Shown here piece after piece: positions 50,406 to 63,921 of a stretch of DNA of 64,000 nucleotides. The notes beneath the pieces were generated by a model. It did not search any database. It had not been told where the DNA came from and was given only the letters and a program-made list of their open reading frames with translations. The stretch is from a virus. Every line of letters begins with the position of its first letter. Within the stretch, counting starts at the first letter, position 1. Location: IMG/VR virus record IMGVR_UViG_3300031977_002889; one strand, written 5' to 3'. The translations under genes and the position numbers were made by a program.

Positions 50406-51017
50406 TTACAAACTCCCTGCTATTAGTTTTTTTATATGAATATTACCTTTATAACCAGTCCAATGATGAATCAAAGGATTAGGCGGTACAGTATTATCTA
50501 AATGGTCTATTCGCAAAACATTAAATCGTCTTGGAATATCAGAAATATATATCATCCTCTTCAAATCATCTTTTAACATATAATGTAATGTTTCTTGATC
50601 GCCTTGTATGGGGCTTTGTTCTACTGCGATACTCCAATCTTTTAAAACTTGAATTGGTCCTTGAATCCCAACCACACCAGAATTATGCCACATTTCTCCT
50701 GATCTTGTGGACCATGGAAGATCTTGACACATTGCCAATTTATTTGGCTCAATGTATTTCCATATTGTATCTAAATTACCAAGTACTTCACAATCTGTAT
50801 CTAACCATACAACTTGATCTGCAAGTGATGTTGCATCTAACATTGCTGATGGTTTCTTAAACCAACCCTTGGCAAGTGGATTAAATTCATCAAAATCGTA
50901 GATCTTAATTGGTATATCATTCCATTTTTTAAAATTTTCAAGGAACCATGGCAACTGCCAACGAGTTCGATGATCACAACCAGTAATAAAAAGTTTAGAT
51001 AATTTCGTATTGCTCAT
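50406..51017 (-). CDS. GT8-like glycosyltransferase
   Basis: WFKKP, WLDTD, NSGVV, GDQE.L, HWTG. Confidence 0.78.
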   Translation of the reverse strand: MSNTKLSKLFITGCDHRTRWQLPWFLENFKKWNDIPIKIYDFDEFNPLAKGWFKKPSAMLDATSLADQVVWLDTDCEVLGNLDTIWKYIEPNKLAMCQDLPWSTRSGEMWHNSGVVGIQGPIQVLKDWSIAVEQSPIQGDQETLHYMLKDDLKRMIYISDIPRRFNVLRIDHLDNTVPPNPLIHHWTGYKGNIHIKKLIAGSL

Positions 51018-51642
51018 TATAATTATGTTTCGCTAAGCATCCCGTTTCATTTTGAATTGTGGTAAAACTATCTTGACATTCTACTGGCCAAGGATATTTT
51101 TCTTGTAAACCTGGAAATGTATGAATATTCAAAAATACATCTGTAGGTCTTGCATTACGTTTAGCTTCATAAACTAATTGTTCTGCGCCTTTTGGTGAAA
51201 CGCAATACGCATGAGCACCTGGAAAATATGCTTTCGAAGTCAATGGACCTTCACCAATTCTTGGCATATTATATTTACCATACGACGGAGAACCAAGATT
51301 CATAGCAACAACGGGCTGTAATTGACTGTTAATATTATTAACAATAACTGCATCGTGTTCAAAGATAAAAAATGTTTTATAGGATTCGGCACATTGTTTC
51401 CATAATGTATAATGAGATAAGAATGCTGCAATACAATTAGGAGTACGAGAATATCGTTCTATAAATCCACGTTTATCGATACCTTCTTTTGTAAGAATGC
51501 CAGCCAAATCATCTTTAGGTGTAATAGCTGGAAACATTTCGATGTTTATACCGCCATATCTTTGGCCAGATTCAATACATCGTTCAGCTGCTGCGACCGA
51601 CTTTGGATTATCCATAATTGTGATTACAAAATTATTATTCAT
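50995..51642 (-). CDS. GT25-like glycosyltransferase
   Basis: F.AITP, FLSHY.LW..C, IFEHDA, GAHAY.VSP.GA..L. Confidence 0.78.
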   Translation of the reverse strand: MNNNFVITIMDNPKSVAAAERCIESGQRYGGINIEMFPAITPKDDLAGILTKEGIDKRGFIERYSRTPNCIAAFLSHYTLWKQCAESYKTFFIFEHDAVIVNNINSQLQPVVAMNLGSPSYGKYNMPRIGEGPLTSKAYFPGAHAYCVSPKGAEQLVYEAKRNARPTDVFLNIHTFPGLQEKYPWPVECQDSFTTIQNETGCLAKHNYNEQYEII

Positions 51643-51860
51643 TATCCACCTACGTATATGTCATTTTTAGGTCTGTACCAATGTTTTTGATGATGTATTC
51701 TTCCAAGTAAATTTTGAATTTCGTGCATTTCTTCTTTCAGTTTTTCTGATGTATCACCACTTGCAATTGCGATACCTCTTCGACCAGCTTTAGCTCGTAA
51801 TGCGTGTTCGATTATTTCTATATCTCGTACTGATAAAGTAAAGCTTGTGTTTGGTTTCAT
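51642..51860 (-). CDS. Hypothetical protein
   Basis: 72 aa coupled ORF. Confidence 0.6.
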   Translation of the reverse strand: MKPNTSFTLSVRDIEIIEHALRAKAGRRGIAIASGDTSEKLKEEMHEIQNLLGRIHHQKHWYRPKNDIYVGG

Positions 51861-52552
51861 GTGGTTGTTGATGGAAGTCCTTGAACTCTCGTATAAAATT
51901 TACGAGTAACTCCCATTCCTTTCACTAATTGTTTACACATTAAAGCATCATTTGGCCATAACCCATATTTCTTTACTAACTTCAACAGTTGTTTTGCTCC
52001 ATCTGGTTTAATTATGTATGCTGAATTACCAGCTAAACCTTGTGGAACATTTACAGAATCAACTGTAGGAACTGGAACAATATTGTCTTTTCCTTTACTT
52101 GCAATTTCCATAAATTCACGTGCTTTTCTTGTGGCGTATAAAGGATTATTAATACCAATAATTTGATGATTAGACCACAAAATCTGCTCATCTAATTTAT
52201 TAATAAAAACTGCATCGTGTTCTAAAATAAGAAATGGTTTTGCAGCTCCTGCACATTGTCTCCAAAGTTTATAATGACTTAAAGCACACGCCATTCTTGC
52301 AGCAGGATTTGATGTACGATATGCTGTTTTTTTCAAACCAGTGGTAATGTCAAATACTTCACCTTGCCATGGATAATTCCATTGTATCATATAATCGATA
52401 AGATTGACACCAACTTCATCAGGAGTTACTGCATCAAATTTATCAATTCTAATATCATTTTCTAATGTTTTTGATGAATGAATACATATTTCAGCACCTT
52501 TTTCTGAAATTTCATTATCTTTTATTCGTATAACTCTTGCTTCAATATCCAT
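51857..52552 (-). CDS. GT25-like glycosyltransferase
   Basis: FDAVTP, CALSHY.LW, ILEHDA, GNSAYIIKP.GA..L. Confidence 0.8.
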   Translation of the reverse strand: MDIEARVIRIKDNEISEKGAEICIHSSKTLENDIRIDKFDAVTPDEVGVNLIDYMIQWNYPWQGEVFDITTGLKKTAYRTSNPAARMACALSHYKLWRQCAGAAKPFLILEHDAVFINKLDEQILWSNHQIIGINNPLYATRKAREFMEIASKGKDNIVPVPTVDSVNVPQGLAGNSAYIIKPDGAKQLLKLVKKYGLWPNDALMCKQLVKGMGVTRKFYTRVQGLPSTTT

Positions 52553-53210
52553 GTGACATATTCAAATTTGGTGACTTAAAGGTAAAATATTCTGGAACTA
52601 TGTATTCTAATTGTACATTATAACTATTAATAAAGAAATCACTTTGTTCCCATCCATATGTTCTAAGAGTATCAAGTAATCTTTGAGCACCTTGAGGTGT
52701 AATAGCATAAGCACCAGTTCCTGGCATCATAGCTGCACCTTTCCATTGATTATTATGTCTGTATATAAGAGGAGTATCTCCATATTGTAAACAACCAAAT
52801 CCGAGCCATGGTTTATTTTGTACATGGTCGAATACCGGTTGTTTGAAGGCAGATTCAGCATTTAAAATAAGAATTTCTTTGAATGCTGTTTGATTCCATT
52901 TACGAATATTTCCTACGTCTTGTTCTAAAAATGCTACAGGCTCATTTAGTTCTATACATTTTTCCCAAACACGAACATGATTTGTAAAGCATGCTTTTTT
53001 AGCATTATACGTTTTAGTATTTTGTCTTTTAAAATCTTGAATACGAGCACCTTCAGCATCAGGATATTCTTCATATTCAGATAAAGTCTCAGGTGTAACA
53101 CCTTCTAAAAGTTCAGCATCAAATCCAGACTGATAACAACTTGCTCTACATTTTTCTGCTTGCTTTTCTGATTCTTTATGACCTTTTACATATATTACAA
53201 ATGATTTCAT
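52542..53210 (-). CDS. GT25-like glycosyltransferase
   Basis: GVTP, CF.NH..VW.KC, FLEQD, GT.AYAITP.GA..L. Confidence 0.75.
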   Translation of the reverse strand: MKSFVIYVKGHKESEKQAEKCRASCYQSGFDAELLEGVTPETLSEYEEYPDAEGARIQDFKRQNTKTYNAKKACFTNHVRVWEKCIELNEPVAFLEQDVGNIRKWNQTAFKEILILNAESAFKQPVFDHVQNKPWLGFGCLQYGDTPLIYRHNNQWKGAAMMPGTGAYAITPQGAQRLLDTLRTYGWEQSDFFINSYNVQLEYIVPEYFTFKSPNLNMSHGY

Positions 53211-55659: not shown

Positions 55660-55723
55660 TTTACAAAATACCCAAATGTGGTATAATTAACTGTAGTTAG
55701 GGGAGAGGAGAGGTAACCTCTAA
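55660..55723 (+). ncRNA. Antisense-oriented promoter plus purine-loop hairpin, copy 2
   Basis: TTTACA-N16-TATAAT, identical AATTAACTGTAGTTAGG core, hairpin TTAGGGG/CCTCTAA with loop AGAGGAGAGGTAA. Confidence 0.55.
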
Positions 55724-56164
55724 AATAATTTGTATAATTTCCCGACCCGTTTTTGATTTTTTAATTTTTTGTCTAACTTTTTTATCTTTAGTATAGTCTC
55801 TTACGAATAGAAGAGCGTCCAATTTTATTTTAAATAAGTCTGGTTGCTCAATGTCATCATTAAACATTTTTGCAAAAAAATTCAAAAATGGATTTTCTGT
55901 TTTTTTCTCGTATCCTTCTGCTTCAGCAAATCTTTTTGCAATCGATTTATTTCGAATAGTCGCGGTTTCTAATCTTTCGGTTGTATTTAAATGTATATCT
56001 GTTAATGAAACATATTCTAAAAGTTTATTAAATTTTCTAGTCCCTACTAATATATTTTCAACACGAGTACCGTCTTCGCTATTAATATAAACTGATACTT
56101 GTGTTTTTGTATCATTCGTAAAATACGCATTTATAATTATTTCGTGTTCATCAATCATTACCAT
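55697..56164 (-). CDS. Hypothetical protein, short paralog of 62860..63921
   Basis: C-terminal LFKIKLD.L......KK...KIKKSK...II..IL matches LFKSKLE.L......K....KVRKAK....LI..VL. Confidence 0.65.
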   Translation of the reverse strand: MVMIDEHEIIINAYFTNDTKTQVSVYINSEDGTRVENILVGTRKFNKLLEYVSLTDIHLNTTERLETATIRNKSIAKRFAEAEGYEKKTENPFLNFFAKMFNDDIEQPDLFKIKLDALLFVRDYTKDKKVRQKIKKSKTGREIIQIILEVTSPLP

Positions 56165-58116
56165 TTTCCAGACAATTTAAATTCATATTGAAACGATTTA
56201 TCAATTTTATTAAGAAATGCATCTTCATTTGTCTTAAGATCATATGTATTATGAATAGTATAATTACCATCTCGATCAATATCAAAATTAATTAAAGATT
56301 TATAATTATAAAATTTACCTTTATCAAACATATATTCAAATTCAGTTATATCTAAATCTGTAGTATCATATTTTAACTTAATTTTATATCCACCTCTAGC
56401 TCTCCATATCATTCTCAATAATACAAAGACTTCATTCATGGCTGAATTTGCAAAATTTCCTAAATCAGATTTAATAATGTTATAATCAAAATCGTATTCG
56501 TATTCTAATTCATTATTAAATTTAGATTCGTCTTGAAACTCAATGCTAAAGTGTTTTAAAACATTTCCATTTTCATGTGAATTTAAAATTCTTTTATTTT
56601 TATTATCACCGTGTATAACAAATGGCTTTTCAAATTCGTTACAAATTTTAATCCAAATATGCATATGTTTGACTCTTAAATACCGATGAAATCTAGTATT
56701 TTTAAGATCTTTAGTGTACCAAGCTCCAAACCATGGGTTATCTCTTTCATTTAGATTAAATTTTTCTCTATCGTCGTACGCAGTACCTGGAATATCCCAC
56801 AATCCAGTGCCAGGTGCAATTGAATGAATTCTTCTTCTATGATTCCACAATAAATTAAGGCTATGAGCAAATGCTTCATGATCTTCTTCTGGTGCTCCAA
56901 TAATCCATAACGCTACAGTATTAACATTATGTTTTTCTCCAGAAATAATATTTGCATTAATATCTTCGATAGTATTTTTCTTATTAATAGCATCTAATAC
57001 TTTTTGACTACCCGATTCGAATCCATAATTAAAACTTCTTCCACCAGCTTTATAAATCAATTTATAAAATTCATCATCCATTCTTTTATCAGCACGAAGA
57101 TATCCAACCCAACTAATAATACCATCTGGATCTTTTTCTATTTTATATTCTAAGAATCTTTTGAATTCTCTAATATTTCCATTCATTAAGCTATCGGCAA
57201 AAAATACAAATGTTGTACCATGTTGTTCATATTGATACATCATTTCATCTACAACTTTTACACCGTCACGATCTCTAAATTTCCAATACCATACTTCTTG
57301 GCAATATGTACAACGCGCTACACAACCTCTGGTTAATTCTGTACAAACAGAATTTGAAAGTTTGTACATTTCTAATGGAAAATCACTATAATCTGGAAAA
57401 GGAAAACTGTCTAAGTCAGCTCTTTTTTTTCCATATAAACCACCAATAACTTTGCTTTTTGGTTTAATACCCATTTCCCAATCGTCTAAAAAGTCAAATA
57501 GATTTTGTTCTGATTCTCCAATAAATGAATAATCAACCCAAGGGCGTACTGCACTTCCATCCTCGCGTGATTGCCATTTCTCATCCATACATTCTGGGCC
57601 ACCATATAATATGGTAACATCAGGCCGATTTTCTTTTATTTTTTGCGCAACATAATCTGTAGAATGGATATTTGTGTGATAAACAGTAAATCCAATTATA
57701 TCAGTTTCAATAGATAATAATTCTTCAACATATTCATCTAAAAAATCTTGATATGATGGTAATATTTTTTCTTCAAATCTATCAACAGAATCCCACCACC
57801 AATAACTACTTGGTTCCCATGCATCTTTCATTGCGGGATCTTCAAATCTTAAATACTGATATGAATCAATATTAAAATCAAATCCGTATGTTTTATATCC
57901 AGCCGTTCTAGTAATTGCAATAAGTCTTGCTAAATTATATGGAGGCATTAATGGAGCCCACATACCCATGATAACAAAGGCAATACTTGTTTTACGAGTA
58001 CCATGTTGAATTTTTATTGATTCAACACCTTGCCGTTTTTTTCTTATATCTTTAGATATTTCTACTGGAGCTGTAGATAGCAATAAGCTATCGTTATTTG
58101 TTTTATCTAAACTCAT
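56158..58116 (-). CDS. Cobalamin-dependent (class B) radical SAM enzyme
   Basis: B12-binding domain (PPY.LA.L, IIGFT, YGGP, GESE); TRGCVARCTYC; DSL.NG; G.ESGSQKVL..I.K. Confidence 0.88.
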   Translation of the reverse strand: MSLDKTNNDSLLLSTAPVEISKDIRKKRQGVESIKIQHGTRKTSIAFVIMGMWAPLMPPYNLARLIAITRTAGYKTYGFDFNIDSYQYLRFEDPAMKDAWEPSSYWWWDSVDRFEEKILPSYQDFLDEYVEELLSIETDIIGFTVYHTNIHSTDYVAQKIKENRPDVTILYGGPECMDEKWQSREDGSAVRPWVDYSFIGESEQNLFDFLDDWEMGIKPKSKVIGGLYGKKRADLDSFPFPDYSDFPLEMYKLSNSVCTELTRGCVARCTYCQEVWYWKFRDRDGVKVVDEMMYQYEQHGTTFVFFADSLMNGNIREFKRFLEYKIEKDPDGIISWVGYLRADKRMDDEFYKLIYKAGGRSFNYGFESGSQKVLDAINKKNTIEDINANIISGEKHNVNTVALWIIGAPEEDHEAFAHSLNLLWNHRRRIHSIAPGTGLWDIPGTAYDDREKFNLNERDNPWFGAWYTKDLKNTRFHRYLRVKHMHIWIKICNEFEKPFVIHGDNKNKRILNSHENGNVLKHFSIEFQDESKFNNELEYEYDFDYNIIKSDLGNFANSAMNEVFVLLRMIWRARGGYKIKLKYDTTDLDITEFEYMFDKGKFYNYKSLINFDIDRDGNYTIHNTYDLKTNEDAFLNKIDKSFQYEFKLSGKW

Positions 58117-58118
58117 GA

Positions 58119-59300
58119 CTAAATCAAATTGTGTAAATTCTTATCGTTTTCTAATAAAGCTATACACTTATCTATAGCTTTTTGGGCGTCTTGTAAATAC
58201 TCTGGCCATTCACCAAAAACTTCATGCGGCTTTGGTACATCATTAGTCCAATAATGTCTTATTTTATTAATAATACTTTGTATTTTTTCTTTACCTAATA
58301 ATTCATGACTTAAGTCTTCTGTGTGTTCACGTGATCTTCTATGGTATTGATTAATAAAACACTTAAATTCGTTATCAATTGCGAACTTAAAAAATTGATC
58401 TATATTTTCAGCATTAATATTTAATAATACTGCATTAATTGTAATATTATCAGATCCAATTTGTTCTTTAAATTTTTTTACATTACTAAAAGTTTGTTTA
58501 TGAGTTCCACCTACTCTAATAATTGGATACTCTTCTGGCATTACTGTGTCTAAAGAAATACTTAACTTAAGATTATTTTCTTTACAAATTTTTTCTACTT
58601 TTTTATTATATACACTTCCATTAGTACAAACTTGAACTTCGATATTTGGGTTAAGATTTGATATAATTTCACAAATACTATAAAAGGCTTTATGAGCAAA
58701 AGGTTCACCACCAACAAATCTAAATTCTTTTAAATGTGGAACAAATTCTTCAAGTTCTTTTAGTATTTGATTCATATTGTCATCGTCGTCAAATACATTT
58801 TCTGGCCAAGGTCCTAAATGTTTATCTCTACCAAGCATATGTTTAGAAGACAAATAACCGAAACACATTGGACACGCCATATTGCAAAGATTTGAAATCT
58901 CCCATTCAACAATTTTTGGCCAAGAATCTGGATCCATTGCATGCTCTAGTCTTTCATCACCAACATTCCAATCATACTCATTAACAGGCGGTTGAATATC
59001 GTTTGCAATTCTGTTACCACATGTTGGATTACAACCACGATGCATAGTTTGCTTTTCGAACATAGATTCTTGTACACTAGCATTTAGCGATTCTTCACCG
59101 AACCAATAATCTTTTAAACTAAACTTTCCACTGACCCATTTTTCATTATGACCAAAAAAACAACATGGTTGAAGACCACCATCTCTACGAATTCGTAAAT
59201 GATTAAATGGTGCATAGCAACTTATAATTTTATCTTTAAAAGGAATTGCTCTTGAGTCTTGAAATTTAACCCAACTTTGTAAATCTATTTTATTCGACAT
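58119..59300 (-). CDS. Radical SAM protein with N-terminal SPASM/twitch-like Cys cluster
   Basis: CYAPF...G...PCC...C..C; SNLCNMACPMC; GGEPF; TNG. Confidence 0.87.
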   Translation of the reverse strand: MSNKIDLQSWVKFQDSRAIPFKDKIISCYAPFNHLRIRRDGGLQPCCFFGHNEKWVSGKFSLKDYWFGEESLNASVQESMFEKQTMHRGCNPTCGNRIANDIQPPVNEYDWNVGDERLEHAMDPDSWPKIVEWEISNLCNMACPMCFGYLSSKHMLGRDKHLGPWPENVFDDDDNMNQILKELEEFVPHLKEFRFVGGEPFAHKAFYSICEIISNLNPNIEVQVCTNGSVYNKKVEKICKENNLKLSISLDTVMPEEYPIIRVGGTHKQTFSNVKKFKEQIGSDNITINAVLLNINAENIDQFFKFAIDNEFKCFINQYHRRSREHTEDLSHELLGKEKIQSIINKIRHYWTNDVPKPHEVFGEWPEYLQDAQKAIDKCIALLENDKNLHNLI

Positions 59301-60426
59301 ATAATTTAGGTTCTAATAATGTTATTGTTTTGTTGACTGCTTCAATAAATGAATCACTTAATTGTAAATGATGCTTTTTTCGAATCCATTTATTTTGTAA
59401 TATATCTATAACTTCTCTTCGTTGATATATGTCAACATTAGAAACATTCCAATCAATTGTATGTTCTCTACCGTGTCTATCGTAACCGTTAATAAATGGT
59501 TCAAAGTTATTATCAAACGCATATTGAAAAAACGTATCAATATTTAAACAATTAATAGACATTAAAGTTGAGTTGATTTTAATATTATCTGATCCTAATA
59601 CATTTTTAAATTTTTGAATATTGCCTAAAGTTTCAGAATGAACACCACCAATTCGTATTTTATCGTATTCATCTTTTATTACAGTATCTAAAGACATAGA
59701 TAATTTCATATTCAAAAGTTTAGCAAACTTATCTACCTTTGTGTTATAAATGCTTCCATTTGTTGTAATATCAATGATCATGTCGGGGTTTAATTTTGTC
59801 ACAAGCTCAGCTATTCTATAAAAACCTTTATGCGCAAAAGGTTCTCCACCAGTAAATCGAATAGTATGTAAATAAGGAATAAACTCTTCTAATTCAATTA
59901 ATAATTGTTCTAAATTTTCATCATCATCAAAAGTATTTTGATCGTATTTTTTTAAATCTTTATCCCGACCTAGCATATGTTTTGAACTTAATTCGCCCAT
60001 ACACATTACACATGCCATATTACATAGATTTGAAATTTCAAATTCAAATACTTTTGGCCAAGAATCTGGATCCATTGCATGCTCTAGTCTTTCATCACCA
60101 ACATTCCAATCATAATCGTATATCGGTGGAGGCAATAATTTATTAATCCTACTACCACAAGATTTTACACAACCTTTACTTAAGCCACCTTCAAGAAAAT
60201 CATCTTGATATTCTTCATTCACTCCACCAAACCAATAATCTTTTAAACTGGTTTTTCCTTTTTCCCATTTTTGATGAGAAGTTGAAAAACAGCACGGCAT
60301 CATCATACCATTTCTTTTAATGCGCATATGATTAAAAGCGGCATAACAAGTTATGGTCTTATGATGCCGTGGAATATTTCGTTTTTGCTGAAAAAAATCT
60401 TTTGCGAATTTTTCAATTTCAATCAA
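59290..60426 (-). CDS. Radical SAM protein, close paralog of 58119..59300
   Basis: CYAAF...PCC...C..SC; SNLCNMACVMC; GGEPF; TTNG. Confidence 0.87.
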   Translation of the reverse strand: MIEIEKFAKDFFQQKRNIPRHHKTITCYAAFNHMRIKRNGMMMPCCFSTSHQKWEKGKTSLKDYWFGGVNEEYQDDFLEGGLSKGCVKSCGSRINKLLPPPIYDYDWNVGDERLEHAMDPDSWPKVFEFEISNLCNMACVMCMGELSSKHMLGRDKDLKKYDQNTFDDDENLEQLLIELEEFIPYLHTIRFTGGEPFAHKGFYRIAELVTKLNPDMIIDITTNGSIYNTKVDKFAKLLNMKLSMSLDTVIKDEYDKIRIGGVHSETLGNIQKFKNVLGSDNIKINSTLMSINCLNIDTFFQYAFDNNFEPFINGYDRHGREHTIDWNVSNVDIYQRREVIDILQNKWIRKKHHLQLSDSFIEAVNKTITLLEPKLYVE

Positions 60427-61639
60427 ATTTATAATCCTTTAGATAAGGAGCCAATTCATATATATCTTCATTATTTTCTCTTGCAACTAAGCAAAAGTCA
60501 ATCCATTGAACCATTCTTCTTTGAATGGTGCCTCGTCCAGATAGATCTGGTTTTACACTTAAAATATTATTTACACCACTTACAACCAGTCTATCGCTTA
60601 AATATAAAGTATCATTTGCTTTTTTATAGCTTTTTAAATAGTTAAAAAAGTTATCAAGACCTTCTTTAATATGATGTTCATGTAAATATAATGGAGAACA
60701 ATATTTTGGAAATGTAACTAAATTAGCCATACTAATTCTATCAACGCCATCAACATCTTTCCAAAAATCAATCAATTCAGGTAAATGCATCCAATTATAA
60801 ATTGATATTGTAGATACGATTACAACCTTTCTTCCTTCAACAGCATGATAGCGATTAATATTATTTAAAGTTCTTTTAAAATTGCCACCACGAATCCAAT
60901 TATATAACTCGTGCACACCGTCGATGCTTGCTTGAATATGTACTTCTTTTAATCTGTGTAGTAATTGAATAACAGTATTTGTTACCAGTTGAAAATTTGT
61001 ACAAATTTCTACTCTACATGTGGGGTTTGTATTTGCGAGTTTTTCTAGTATTTTAATATTATTTGGATCAGCAAATGGTTCACCACCTTTAATTGTAAGA
61101 TGCTGTAAACCTGGAACGATTTTTAGTATCTTATCTACATCAACATCAGTCATTTTATACATTTCTGTATGAAATTTATGATTCTCATCTCTCCAATGTA
61201 ATCCAGATTCAACTGCCATTTTTTCATATGGAGCCCATTTATGTGAATATTTACCTGAACAAGTTACACACATTTGATTACAAATATTGCTCGTGGTAAT
61301 TTCTAAAAATCGAATGGGTCGTGAATCTTTTTCAATGTCTTCTTCATATGTTGGAAACTCAAATCTATTATAAGAATCAAATCTTGCAATTCTTCCAGCT
61401 TTATGGTGTATTACACATACATCGCACTGTGGTGGATAGTTATTATTTTTAAAATTATGACGAATCTCATCGTATACATTAGAATTGAAAAATTCTTCAA
61501 CGTCATCGATATCTTTAATATGTGATACTGCTACATTGTCTCCAGCACAACATAATACAATTTCTCCTAATGGATTAATTGTTAAACCAGTTTCTGGAAC
61601 TAAACATTTCATCGAGCAATTACCATATGACGATTCCAT
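60419..61639 (-). CDS. Radical SAM protein with N-terminal SPASM/twitch-like Cys cluster (probable start MKCLVP)
   Basis: C..P...G...LCC...C..C; SNICNQMCVTC; GGEPF; TN; SIDG. Confidence 0.87.
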   Translation of the reverse strand: MESSYGNCSMKCLVPETGLTINPLGEIVLCCAGDNVAVSHIKDIDDVEEFFNSNVYDEIRHNFKNNNYPPQCDVCVIHHKAGRIARFDSYNRFEFPTYEEDIEKDSRPIRFLEITTSNICNQMCVTCSGKYSHKWAPYEKMAVESGLHWRDENHKFHTEMYKMTDVDVDKILKIVPGLQHLTIKGGEPFADPNNIKILEKLANTNPTCRVEICTNFQLVTNTVIQLLHRLKEVHIQASIDGVHELYNWIRGGNFKRTLNNINRYHAVEGRKVVIVSTISIYNWMHLPELIDFWKDVDGVDRISMANLVTFPKYCSPLYLHEHHIKEGLDNFFNYLKSYKKANDTLYLSDRLVVSGVNNILSVKPDLSGRGTIQRRMVQWIDFCLVARENNEDIYELAPYLKDYKFD

Positions 61640-62262
61640 TCTCCATTACTTTGTGAATTAGCAAAATCAGGAGACCAAAACATATTATCATCATTTGGCC
61701 AACGAAAAGATTTTTCAAGATCTTTATACGTTGAATGTGGATTAATATGTGTTTTATGAGGCATATTTGTTGATTGAAGAACAACCCAACAATCTTTATC
61801 TTTTTTATTAATCATATCTTGAATAATATTATGAGGAATATGTTCTACACTAGTACAAAAAATAGCTGAAATACCTTCGTAGTCATTTTCATTTGCATTT
61901 TGTAAAGCTAATGTTTTAAATTCAATATTGTTATCTGAAAACAATTTATATCCGAGTTTAGCACATTTAGGATCCATATCAGATGATATGATATGGTAAC
62001 CTTCATCAAATCTTTTTCTAAGTTGATATGCCAATAACCCATACCAACCTCCAATTATTAATATTTTACCAGTAGTTTGTTGTGTTACTTGTTCGTATAA
62101 ATTGTAAAAAATATCCGCAGCCCATTGCTTATTTCGCCAATGATTTACATCTAATGAATGAATAACATCTTTAATACGAAATATATCTTTATCACCATAT
62201 TCAGATTCAACGTAAATTTCTTCAATTAATTTTAATGCTTTATTTAAAATCGATACATCCAA
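61609..62262 (-). CDS. Class I SAM-dependent methyltransferase-like protein
   Basis: IIGGWYG Gly-rich loop, S.D.DP.C, TS.EH. Confidence 0.7.
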   Translation of the reverse strand: MDVSILNKALKLIEEIYVESEYGDKDIFRIKDVIHSLDVNHWRNKQWAADIFYNLYEQVTQQTTGKILIIGGWYGLLAYQLRKRFDEGYHIISSDMDPKCAKLGYKLFSDNNIEFKTLALQNANENDYEGISAIFCTSVEHIPHNIIQDMINKKDKDCWVVLQSTNMPHKTHINPHSTYKDLEKSFRWPNDDNMFWSPDFANSQSNGEWNRHMVIAR

Positions 62263-62863
62263 AATCTAATTCCTCAAATGTAACCACAGGTGCTTCTTTT
62301 TCATCTTCATACTTATATGACCATGTATAATCAAATGGAAAAAATCTTAAAGAATCCTTAAAGTCTTCATGAATAATATATCTATCTATACCAGCATACT
62401 TGCGTAAAAAATAGTCACGATATCCTGAATTTTCAAAATGAATCCAAAGTTTGTGCAATTCTACATTATTAGCATCCCATGCCATTACAGAAGAATTTAT
62501 TTTAACATCGTAATTTGTAAGACGAATTAGCTCATCGTCTTTAAAATGAGAATATAATAAATTTAAATATTCCCAATCAACATCTACTTCAAATGGATTT
62601 CCTCGAATTACTATATCTATATCAAAATACCACGTTTTACCAGATATTGGAAACTCTTTAGAAAACATGTAAAGTTTATTCCAAACATCTGGTAAATATA
62701 AATTTTCGGGAATAGGAATTATATTTAATCCATCAACATCTATAGATTGATCTGTAAAACAATAATAATTATATTCTGGACCATATTGTTTTACATCATT
62801 ATATAATTTTTCAACTTGAGTAGAATTATATTTATTACCCCATAATACAAATAGTACATTCAT
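62240..62863 (-). CDS. GT-A glycosyltransferase-like protein
   Basis: WG.KY, CFTD, WNKL.MF, YFDID (DxD), NSSVM.W, GID.YI, SYK. Confidence 0.75.
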   Translation of the reverse strand: MNVLFVLWGNKYNSTQVEKLYNDVKQYGPEYNYYCFTDQSIDVDGLNIIPIPENLYLPDVWNKLYMFSKEFPISGKTWYFDIDIVIRGNPFEVDVDWEYLNLLYSHFKDDELIRLTNYDVKINSSVMAWDANNVELHKLWIHFENSGYRDYFLRKYAGIDRYIIHEDFKDSLRFFPFDYTWSYKYEDEKEAPVVTFEELDFGCIDFK

Positions 62864-63921
62864 TTTTTAAGAGTCTCTAGCTCATTCAATACTAATTTAA
62901 TTAAAGAATTAACATCTTTTGCTTTACGAACTTTAGATTTAAAGGATTTATCAGAGTTTTTAAGTTGTGGTTTTGCTAATATTTCTAATTTAGATTTAAA
63001 TAGTGTTTCTTTATCTGCGTCTTCATTAAAAATAGTATCAAAAATATTCATACCATATAACTGTTGATATTTATCGTAGTTTTGTTGCATGCGCTCTTTC
63101 ATTTCGTCCATTCGTGCAACAAAATCTTTTTTCAAACCAGTATTTAAATCAATACGTTCAGTTTCTACATCTTTCTTTAATTCAGTACGTTCAATTTCTA
63201 ATTCTTGAGTTGCTTTAGAATGTTCATCATAGAGATCGGCTAAACTTTCTGATGCTTGCTGTTGTTCCTTATATAATTCACCTAAAGTGCCTGATGCTTG
63301 CTGCTGTTCTTGATATAATTCACCTAAAGTGCCTGATGCTTGCTGCTGTTCTTGATATAATTCACCAAGAGTACCAGCAGCATTTTGTTGTTCTTGATAT
63401 AATTCACCAAGAGTACTAGACGCATGTTGCTGTTCTTGATATAATTCGCCAAGAGTACTAGATGCATGTTGCTGTTCTTGATATAATTCGCCAAGAGTAC
63501 TAGATGCATGTTGCTGTTCTTGATATAAATCATTCAAAGTACGAGCAGCTTGTTGTTGTTCTTGATATAAATCTTGTAGATTTGACATCACGTCTTTTTG
63601 CTCTTGATACAAATCTTTTAATTGACTTTTTAAATCGTCAAATTGTGCTTGTTTATCTTTTAATTGAGAAACAGCCCAAGAATATCCACCTGCAATTTTT
63701 TCAACTAATCTTACTGAAGGATCTTCAATGCTTTGAAGTTCCTTTGTTCTTTCTTTAATTTTTTGAAGAGACCATCCACTTTCAATTAAAGATTTATAAG
63801 ATTCTTTACGTGGATTTTTTTGAATATTAGTTACTAAAACATCATTACCTTCTTTATGGGTAACTTTAATAGTTTTTTCAGTAATAAATTCAGCACTCAA
63901 TACGTTTTCTGATGTAAACAT
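62860..63921 (-). CDS. Repeat-containing coiled-coil protein, long paralog of 55697..56164
   Basis: 353 aa with ten 14-aa L(G/x)(E/D)LYQEQQxxSxT repeats between shared N- and C-terminal domains. Confidence 0.75.
   Translation of the reverse strand: MFTSENVLSAEFITEKTIKVTHKEGNDVLVTNIQKNPRKESYKSLIESGWSLQKIKERTKELQSIEDPSVRLVEKIAGGYSWAVSQLKDKQAQFDDLKSQLKDLYQEQKDVMSNLQDLYQEQQQAARTLNDLYQEQQHASSTLGELYQEQQHASSTLGELYQEQQHASSTLGELYQEQQNAAGTLGELYQEQQQASGTLGELYQEQQQASGTLGELYKEQQQASESLADLYDEHSKATQELEIERTELKKDVETERIDLNTGLKKDFVARMDEMKERMQQNYDKYQQLYGMNIFDTIFNEDADKETLFKSKLEILAKPQLKNSDKSFKSKVRKAKDVNSLIKLVLNELETLKK
63203..63621 (-). repeat. Ten tandem 42-nt repeats (14 aa)
   Basis: ttgctgttcttgatataattc(a/g)cc..agt recurring at 42 nt period. 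Confidence 0.92.

Follow-up and report, generated by a model that had tools for sequence, protein, structure and literature searches.

The DNA analyzed here is a stretch of 64,000 nucleotides (IMG/VR virus record IMGVR_UViG_3300031977_002889; hereafter the window) from an uncultured marine T4-like myophage. Directly after the tail-fibre genes it carries an operon of eight genes (63921-55697, minus strand, ~8.2 kb), which encodes four radical S-adenosylmethionine (SAM) enzymes, a putative glycosyltransferase (GT), a methyltransferase-like protein and, at its two ends, a pair of related non-enzymatic proteins that we call A and B. We tentatively read this operon as a sugar-tailoring cassette of the phage host-recognition cluster, in which A and B serve as non-catalytic accessory proteins. 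We take it to be a compact example of a widespread type of cassette, found in marine and freshwater T4-like phages within the variable host-recognition cluster that follows the fibre genes. The features of the operon are as follows.

62860..63921, minus strand: gene A, 353 amino acid (aa) non-enzymatic protein with a beta domain at the N-terminus, then ten helical units of 14 residues and a three-helix bundle at the C-terminus; paralogue of B
63251..63570, minus strand: 42-nucleotide (nt) in-frame tandem array within gene A, 7.6 near-identical copies
62240..62863, minus strand: GT207, 207 aa GT-A-like putative glycosyltransferase of a viral-only family, with an invariant DxD at D81/D83
61609..62262, minus strand: MT217, 217 aa class I SAM-dependent methyltransferase-like protein, of a family found in 20 related loci
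60419..61639, minus strand: 406 aa radical SAM enzyme with an N-terminal twitch domain (N-twitch), full NF033640 member
59290..60426, minus strand: 378 aa N-twitch radical SAM enzyme, tandem paralogue of the 393-aa enzyme (51% identity)
58119..59300, minus strand: 393 aa N-twitch radical SAM enzyme, whose orthologues (E ~1e-47) adjoin the B12-type gene in ~35 related loci
56158..58116, minus strand: 652 aa radical SAM enzyme with a probable cobalamin (B12)-binding domain (class B type), of a largely viral family
55697..56164, minus strand: gene B, 155 aa (B155), repeat-less paralogue of A, modelled as four strands, a long helix and a three-helix bundle

A preliminary description of this DNA, made from the letters alone, had proposed an overlapping-gene operon reading, in this order, repeat protein, GT, methyltransferase, three radical SAM enzymes with N-terminal cysteine clusters, a B12-type enzyme and a 155-aa protein. 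The calls of open reading frames (ORFs) confirm this layout, with overlaps of 4, 23, 31, 8, 11 and 7 nt between successive genes and one gap of 2 nt.

The enzymes are read as a sugar-tailoring set because genes that handle sugar nucleotides or decorate sugars recur beside their relatives. The B12-type enzyme has hundreds of homologues at ~47% identity, with at least 120 loci in viral contigs versus 6 in a set of 185,579 genomes that represent one prokaryotic species each; one of these six, L005, proved to be viral (see below). Neighbourhoods were counted over 80 of the viral loci. N-twitch radical SAM genes lie within 10 kb of the B12-type gene in 52 of these 80, often four to nine to a locus. 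A second radical SAM family occurs in 41 of the loci, a DUF6071 protein in 25, MT217-like genes in 20 and a NodU/CmcH-type carbamoyltransferase in 17. One operon with a B12-type enzyme also encodes a CMP-sugar cytidylyltransferase, a HAD-nucleotidyltransferase fusion, two sulfotransferases and a 2-oxoglutarate (2OG) oxygenase. A TylC3-type C-methyltransferase is a further companion, and a DegT-type aminotransferase and GDP-mannose-dehydratase-type enzymes occur across the neighbour families. In one phage contig, ~20 co-directional radical SAM genes are arrayed over ~45 kb (L101/L102; G006:C3:12000-52000), together with a carbamoyltransferase, an MT217-like gene and an NAD epimerase/dehydratase. 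Sugar-nucleotide handling is the common denominator of these enzyme neighbourhoods, and the final acceptor seems to differ between contexts. One of the possibilities raised in the preliminary description, an unusual methylated sugar passed on by the GT, fits these data better than its alternative, in that sugar-nucleotide and sugar-decorating genes adjoin the same families in relatives; no sugar-nucleotide synthesis gene lies in the operon itself.

Based on these findings, we postulate the following course of events. The radical SAM enzymes would break unactivated C-H bonds in a sugar or sugar nucleotide by hydrogen abstraction. Those with twitch clusters would perform an oxidation, an epimerisation or a dehydration, the methylcobalamin enzyme would perform a C-methylation, and the class I methyltransferase-like protein would add a second methyl group. 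The GT-A enzyme would attach the product to a macromolecular acceptor, probably a virion protein of the fibre module such as X373, encoded just 5' of A, or a host surface glycan. A and B would not be substrates; they would be accessory proteins (an adaptor, a chaperone or a minor virion component) tied by synteny both to X373 and to where the enzyme block begins, and the 6-10 copies of the 14-residue helix in A would form a length-variable spacer.

A different acceptor, the phage DNA, is suggested by a small group of loci (L026:4437-12261, also L051 and L056), in which a lone B12-type orthologue, 46-47% identical to that of the window, lies in the replication module just before gp45/gp44. Its neighbours are a dCMP deaminase, a TET-associated glycosyltransferase (TAGT; PF20691), an epimerase/dehydratase, a UDP-glucose dehydrogenase and a C5 DNA methylase, and the group represents a DNA-modification context for the same B12-type clade; the TAGT, epimerase and UDP-glucose dehydrogenase also count among the sugar-handling neighbours described above. 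Because of this context, we keep as a minor rival the idea that the cassette builds or edits a group on a modified base of phage DNA. A deoxyribonucleotidase gene and a methyltransferase-like gene lie 3' of the window operon, which would agree with this idea. Nevertheless, we consider it very improbable, as the operon sits in the fibre module and is read with structural genes, and as base modification hardly accounts for arrays with up to 20 radical SAM genes. GT207 also lacks similarity to TAGT: its assignment as a TAGT-type DNA glycosyltransferase was rejected at a BLASTP E-value of 1.8.

All three smaller radical SAM proteins displayed a Pfam SPASM match at the N-terminus (residues 12-75, 27-71 and 28-94 of the 406-, 378- and 393-aa proteins), followed by Radical_SAM. 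Their five N-terminal cysteines follow a common pattern (12/30/31/72/75, 27/45/46/86/90 and 28/46/47/90/94, respectively), and each protein has one CxxxCxxC, starting at residues 120, 135 and 139. Against the N_Twi_rSAM model NF033640 they scored 197.4, 146.3 and 138.7 bits. The curated cut-off is 170 bits, which only the 406-aa protein exceeds; the other two, though below it, align over model positions 4-360 of 398. The N-terminal SPASM/twitch-like cysteine clusters reported in the preliminary description are borne out by these Pfam and end-to-end NF033640 matches.

The 652-aa protein matched Radical_SAM with 47.7 bits and has its CxxxCxxC starting at residue 265. Its match to the B12-binding domain PF02310 (29.5 bits, E 7e-7) falls just under the gathering score of 32.1, and homologues carry precomputed PF02310 matches. 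The B12-dependent enzyme proposed earlier has the expected core and a probable B12-binding domain, the latter with a score slightly short of its threshold. Named class B equivalogs (BchE, PhpK, the RiPP C-methyltransferase TIGR03975 and the methyl-coenzyme M reductase (MCR) glutamine C-methyltransferase, where RiPP stands for ribosomally synthesised and post-translationally modified peptide) gave at best 82-89 bits against cut-offs of 282-600, and TIGR04014 gave 34 bits against 360. Solved structures gave one weak match only. Most B12-type homologues are ~857 aa long (P0010, P0016, P0053, P0066 and ~80 others), with a C-terminal extension that the window enzyme lacks and that bears the glycine-rich motif of class I methyltransferases. 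This extension of ~200 aa was considered as an equivalent of B155 and rejected on account of that motif and of the absence of a phmmer match to window proteins.

The GT and the methyltransferase offered fewer handles. GT207 matched phrog_1962 (E 3e-8, residues 8-89 only), its language-model (ESM) neighbours are viral families near GT8/Nucleotid_trans, and the DxD is kept across its family; it had no Pfam match, and the profile of the family found nothing in PDB. MT217 likewise had no Pfam match, and its family profile matched class I SAM methyltransferases in PDB at E 8e-4, with the GGWYG motif kept in MT217. The two assignments, given earlier as GT and methyltransferase, stand on the phrog_1962 match and DxD in one case and the PDB profile match in the other, with no Pfam match for either, and are best called putative.

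Profile comparisons indicate that A and B are true paralogues at both ends. Their C-termini match by BLASTP (E 9e-8) and in profile-profile alignment (probability 97%, E 2.4e-11, last 57 columns), and their N-termini match in profile-profile alignment as well (probability 88%, E 2.8e-6, 73 columns). Moreover, a hidden Markov model of 14 B-type proteins matches A-type proteins in two stretches (E ~1e-13). The paralogy, first proposed from similar termini, survives profile alignment. So does the proposed insert of ten 14-mers, which lies where B has its long helix: the A protein displays ten 14-mers with LY at a fixed position, and the DNA array has a 42-nt unit in 7.6 copies with 89% match. Close relatives have A versions of 339 and 297 aa that differ by whole repeat units, and more distant A-type proteins of 336 and 295 aa have rebuilt repeats. 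The number of units, ten in A, is six to nine in relatives and varies among near-identical phages. The three A proteins compared are only 42-52% identical overall, yet [L/V]-Y-x-E is invariant in 26/26 of their units and the remainder of the unit drifts. Two genes 5' of A, an 813-aa whisker/spike-like structural protein (L010:639-3080) has 14-residue helical repeats of its own (...QLNQDRDSAA...), with the same period as A.

At 50% identity, the small B family is covered by 14 representatives. Most members are of B-type, without repeats, yet lie beside radical SAM genes. The AlphaFold model of B (mean pLDDT 84) has four strands, a 29-residue helix (54-82) and a three-helix bundle. Fold searches with this model (Foldseek against PDB and BFVD, VIA wide) retrieved generic three-helix bundles only, with Z <=6.6. 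No match to a PqqD-like fold or to a RiPP recognition element (RRE) was found in PDB or BFVD, and because the listed matches span mostly residues 94-155, this barely tested the N-terminal domain. Single-protein locus scans with P0131, P0134 and P0141 found nothing. A 152-aa gene after the L026 B12-type enzyme was considered as an analogue of B and rejected, being of dCMP-deaminase type by motif reading.

The position of A and B relative to other genes provided insights into their role. The contexts cover five lineages, at 32-56% identity or less. In 5/5 of them an X373-family protein is followed by A/B and then by radical SAM, GT and methyltransferase genes. The fuller order in every fetched context is VrlC-like proteins (phrog_358), two to three further proteins, an X373 member, A/B and the enzymes. 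The phrog_358 proteins lie upstream in L016 and L090, and homologues of those from L016 occur in L105; upstream of A in the window clade (L009/L010) are fibre and structural proteins. The genes 3' of A/B are the GT, the methyltransferase, three N-twitch enzymes and the B12-type enzyme in the window clade, and a GT, a methyltransferase, a B12-type enzyme and more radical SAM genes in L016. In L090/L103/L104 and in L105 they are a radical SAM gene, a PP-loop-like protein, an N-twitch enzyme and GT207-like, MT217-like and GT207-like genes, and in L106/L107 a carbamoyltransferase and then radical SAM genes. The B12-type enzyme is present in both A-type (repeat-bearing) lineages and in none of the three B-type lineages, a co-occurrence with too few cases to weigh. 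To this extent the expected linkage between A/B and the enzymes was found, with 5/5 A/B lineages preceding radical SAM genes. Seen from the enzymes it mostly fails, as among the 80 B12-type loci an A/B gene lies within 10 kb only in the window clade and L016. Both the A/B family and its synteny are new findings of this analysis.

The X373 family comprises proteins of 318-406 aa in at least 220 clusters at 90% identity and has no annotation. We found no match for X373 in Pfam, PHROG or PDB profile searches, and its AlphaFold model (pLDDT 43) was unusable. The X373 gene (L010:3100-4221) lies just 5' of A, beyond the window. Family members apparently have three strand-strand-helix modules starting PL....EM(T/S)..E and a conserved terminal DDYR(S/A)QEFP.G.

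Since most A/B family members lack the repeat and most enzyme cassettes lack the A/B family, the repeat cannot be a general substrate of the enzymes. We read A and B as accessory proteins because of the constant order of X373, A/B and enzymes, the existence of repeat-less B-type members, the varying number of repeats and the absence of internal signals in the operon. On this last point, promoter-like and terminator-like sites within the operon were no more frequent than in shuffled sequence. As internal signals do not exceed chance, the simplest reading is a single transcription unit that runs on from the structural genes 5' of it. No canonical TATAAATA late promoter lies immediately 5' of gene A. 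The window has 11 exact TATAAATA matches (at 337, 2858, 9413, 12796, 17292, 22630, 38587, 44542, 44586, 48507 and 55037), a total that equals the chance expectation; all are on the minus (coding) strand, a bias consistent with T4-type late promoters.

Several observations weigh against the sugar-tailoring reading. Library searches of the operon proteins found no sugar-nucleotide synthesis gene, and the GT and methyltransferase assignments that the reading invokes are weakly supported by their sequences. Our literature search found no member of NF033640 or of this B12 clade with a known substrate, and no paper on the N-terminal-twitch family. The sole bacterial locus examined (L003), from a metagenome-assembled genome (MAG) of Halobacteriovorax (G007), belongs to a genuine bacterium. 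This bacterium has nine N-twitch-type matches, and its chromosomal radical SAM cluster, with a 703-aa B12-type enzyme, is next to genes for a TPR protein, an outer-membrane beta-barrel and an Lnb-type protein; no GT was found within 10 kb. L005, once taken as a second bacterial context, was withdrawn, as it comes from a bin of phage contigs. This MAG, 'Gammaproteobacteria bacterium MED685' (G006, 1.2 Mb; L005, L101 and L102), has three gp23 major capsid genes on different contigs (C3:94984-95958, C15:56826-57767 and C26:5422-6603), the first of them on the contig of L005. It is evidently made up of T4-like phage contigs, so that its contexts are viral, not bacterial. The invariant Tyr and Glu of the 26 repeat units are, as a sequence pattern, more than a spacer needs. 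Finally, at least 13 array-type loci have a conserved ORF of 32-40 aa with a basic helical N-part and the invariant end ...(K/R)(K/R)DPFIY(K) (L011:7982-8095, L018:2340-2450, L019:7398-7496, L033:808-909, L044:1679-1780, L101:17551-17682 and others, minus strand). It lies mostly directly 5' of the carbamoyltransferase gene, often overlapping it, and is not in the window. From its sequence, this small protein looks like a precursor peptide or a small subunit.

These last two observations bring in a RiPP-like modification of protein or peptide, the other possibility raised in the preliminary description. The radical SAM enzymes would then act on the [L/V]-Y-x-E units of A (ten sites) or on X373, by Tyr/Glu cross-linking, epimerisation or C-methylation, the GT and methyltransferase would decorate the product, and B would be a recognition or chaperone subunit. 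Besides the invariant motif in divergent A proteins and the small peptide ending ...RKRDPFIY(K), several facts favour this scenario. Radical SAM genes follow A/B in all five lineages, all eight genes, those of A and B included, are translationally coupled, the B12-type enzyme accompanies both A-type lineages and 0/3 of the B-type, and the operon is free of sugar-nucleotide genes. The operon enzymes also gave partial NCBIfam matches to peptide maturases and to the MCR glutamine C-methyltransferase, although those to peptide maturases are far under the cut-offs and confined to the radical SAM core. The opposite is suggested by the ~70 loci whose B12-type orthologues (33-49% identity) lack an A/B gene within 10 kb, and by the enzymes retained beside repeat-less B-type members. 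Moreover, the 14-residue period and its hydrophobic positions fit a helical stalk that would extend helix 54-82 of the B model, and the small peptide of the array loci has no counterpart in the window. Neither an RRE-like match (within the limits given above for the N-terminal domain) nor a protease was found. Pfam, PHROG and NCBIfam searches of the eight operon genes and their neighbours matched no peptidase or transporter, in agreement with what had first been noted for the locus. On balance, the paralogy holds and the five A/B lineages speak for the scaffold or substrate role once suggested for A and B, while the enzymes mostly assort without them, which weakens the reading of A as substrate, and no RRE-like fold was found. 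We regard such a RiPP-like modification as less likely than sugar tailoring, though a live rival. A protein-scale RiPP-like product appears distinctly unlikely to us. Its A units (or X373) would be modified directly by the N-twitch and cobalamin enzymes before glycosylation and methylation, with B as the recognition subunit. If true, it would amount to a virion or scaffold protein bearing cross-links or alkyl groups, in which gain and loss of repeats would alter the number of modified sites.

It could also be that A and B are functionally unrelated to the enzymes. They would then be fibre-module proteins, for instance an assembly chaperone or partner of X373, with the enzyme block inserted at an adjoining recombination hot spot and the bracketing produced by duplication of the flanking gene. 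This would explain why the X373-A/B pair is constant and the downstream set varies (B12-type enzyme in two lineages, PP-loop protein in two, carbamoyltransferase in one). It would also suit the great abundance of the X373 family and the helical repeats of the upstream 813-aa whisker-like protein, which has the 14-residue period too. Furthermore, cassettes of this region are reported to be gained and lost between otherwise similar phages (PMC7029224). Yet in all five lineages the genes that follow A/B include radical SAM genes, with no other gene type in between, and A and B, with overlaps of 4 nt and 7 nt, are coupled in translation to the enzyme genes. In L106/L107, the B-type gene fills the slot just 5' of the carbamoyltransferase, which in array loci is that of the small peptide. 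The absence of any functional tie between A/B and the enzymes is, in our view, unlikely.

We return to the sugar-tailoring cassette as our preferred reading. Few enzyme families have expanded as much in abundant ocean and lake myophages as the N-twitch enzymes and this cobalamin clade, which reach up to ~20 genes in one phage contig. As self-contained versions go, that of the window is among the smallest, with four radical SAM enzymes, a GT, a methyltransferase and two accessory proteins, which makes it a practical construct for finding the chemistry involved. The constant order of X373, A/B and enzymes suggests an acceptor and an adaptor that can be tested. If the product does decorate fibres or the host surface, it would be relevant to how phages of SAR11-type hosts recognise their hosts and exclude superinfection.

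Nearly all genes of the window are on the minus strand. They include a gp23-type major head protein, a portal, a sheath and a terminase. The major head protein is 66% identical to that of Phage C48C1 and 60-61% identical to those of Methylophilales phage Melnitz and Pelagibacter phage HTVC008M. At 50995-53210, the window encodes three paralogous proteins of 215-231 aa with weak PHROG matches to a 2OG-Fe(II) oxygenase family (E ~2e-4). No cultured phage with the cassette was found by megablast or tblastn. Megablast of the locus against cultured phages gave no match, tblastn of B155 gave none either, and tblastn of the B12-type enzyme gave only four weak partial matches. Meanwhile, the N-twitch enzyme retrieved KVP40-like vibriophages, with a single N-twitch gene each, and one Ralstonia phage.

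Among known systems, the closest family by sequence is N_Twi_rSAM (NF033640). All three small enzymes of the window align to it end to end, with twitch/SPASM cysteines that precede the CxxxCxxC core. This family is a sequence definition, for which we found no tested member, and two of the window proteins score below its cut-off. Some class B cobalamin-dependent radical SAM methyltransferases act on sugars or small molecules, namely those of the GenK/GenD1 type, PhpK and Fom3; BchE belongs to the same class. The 652-aa protein resembles them in a probable N-terminal B12-binding domain, a radical SAM core that follows it and a context of tailoring genes, with NCBIfam matches to TIGR04479 and TIGR02026. 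In contrast, it falls short of every named equivalog by hundreds of bits (89 bits at best, against a cut-off of 360), its clade is almost wholly viral, and most of its relatives are fused to a C-terminal class I methyltransferase-like domain.

The pathways of mycofactocin and pyrroloquinoline quinone (PQQ) combine a SPASM radical SAM enzyme, an RRE protein and a small precursor, and mycofactocin also involves a GT and a methyltransferase. The window is reminiscent of them in its radical SAM/SPASM-type enzymes, GT, methyltransferase and small non-catalytic partner, as well as in the Tyr-centred motifs of the candidate substrates. Unlike in these pathways, the twitch domain is N-terminal (the order is inverted), no RRE or peptidase was detected, A is a folded protein of 353 aa and not a short peptide, and NCBIfam matches of MftC/PqqE type are weak and limited to the core.

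The Campylobacter phages CP220 and CPt10 are also T4-like and carry an exchangeable, unexplained module with 11-12 radical SAM genes (PMC2853527). As tblastn of the window N-twitch enzyme found no Campylobacter phage, the radical SAM subfamilies of the two systems differ. A further parallel is offered by the host recognition clusters of pelagimyophages, reported to contain glycosyltransferases as well as 'cassettes related to radical SAM proteins' (Zaragoza-Solas et al. 2020, PMC7029224). These cassettes are only mentioned there, with no composition, flanking paralogues or function described. They occur in the same phage group as the window operon and in the same place, behind VrlC-like and fibre genes and among glycosyltransferases. 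Such a variable block behind VrlC and fibre genes, with glycosyltransferases, is what the window and its relatives display.

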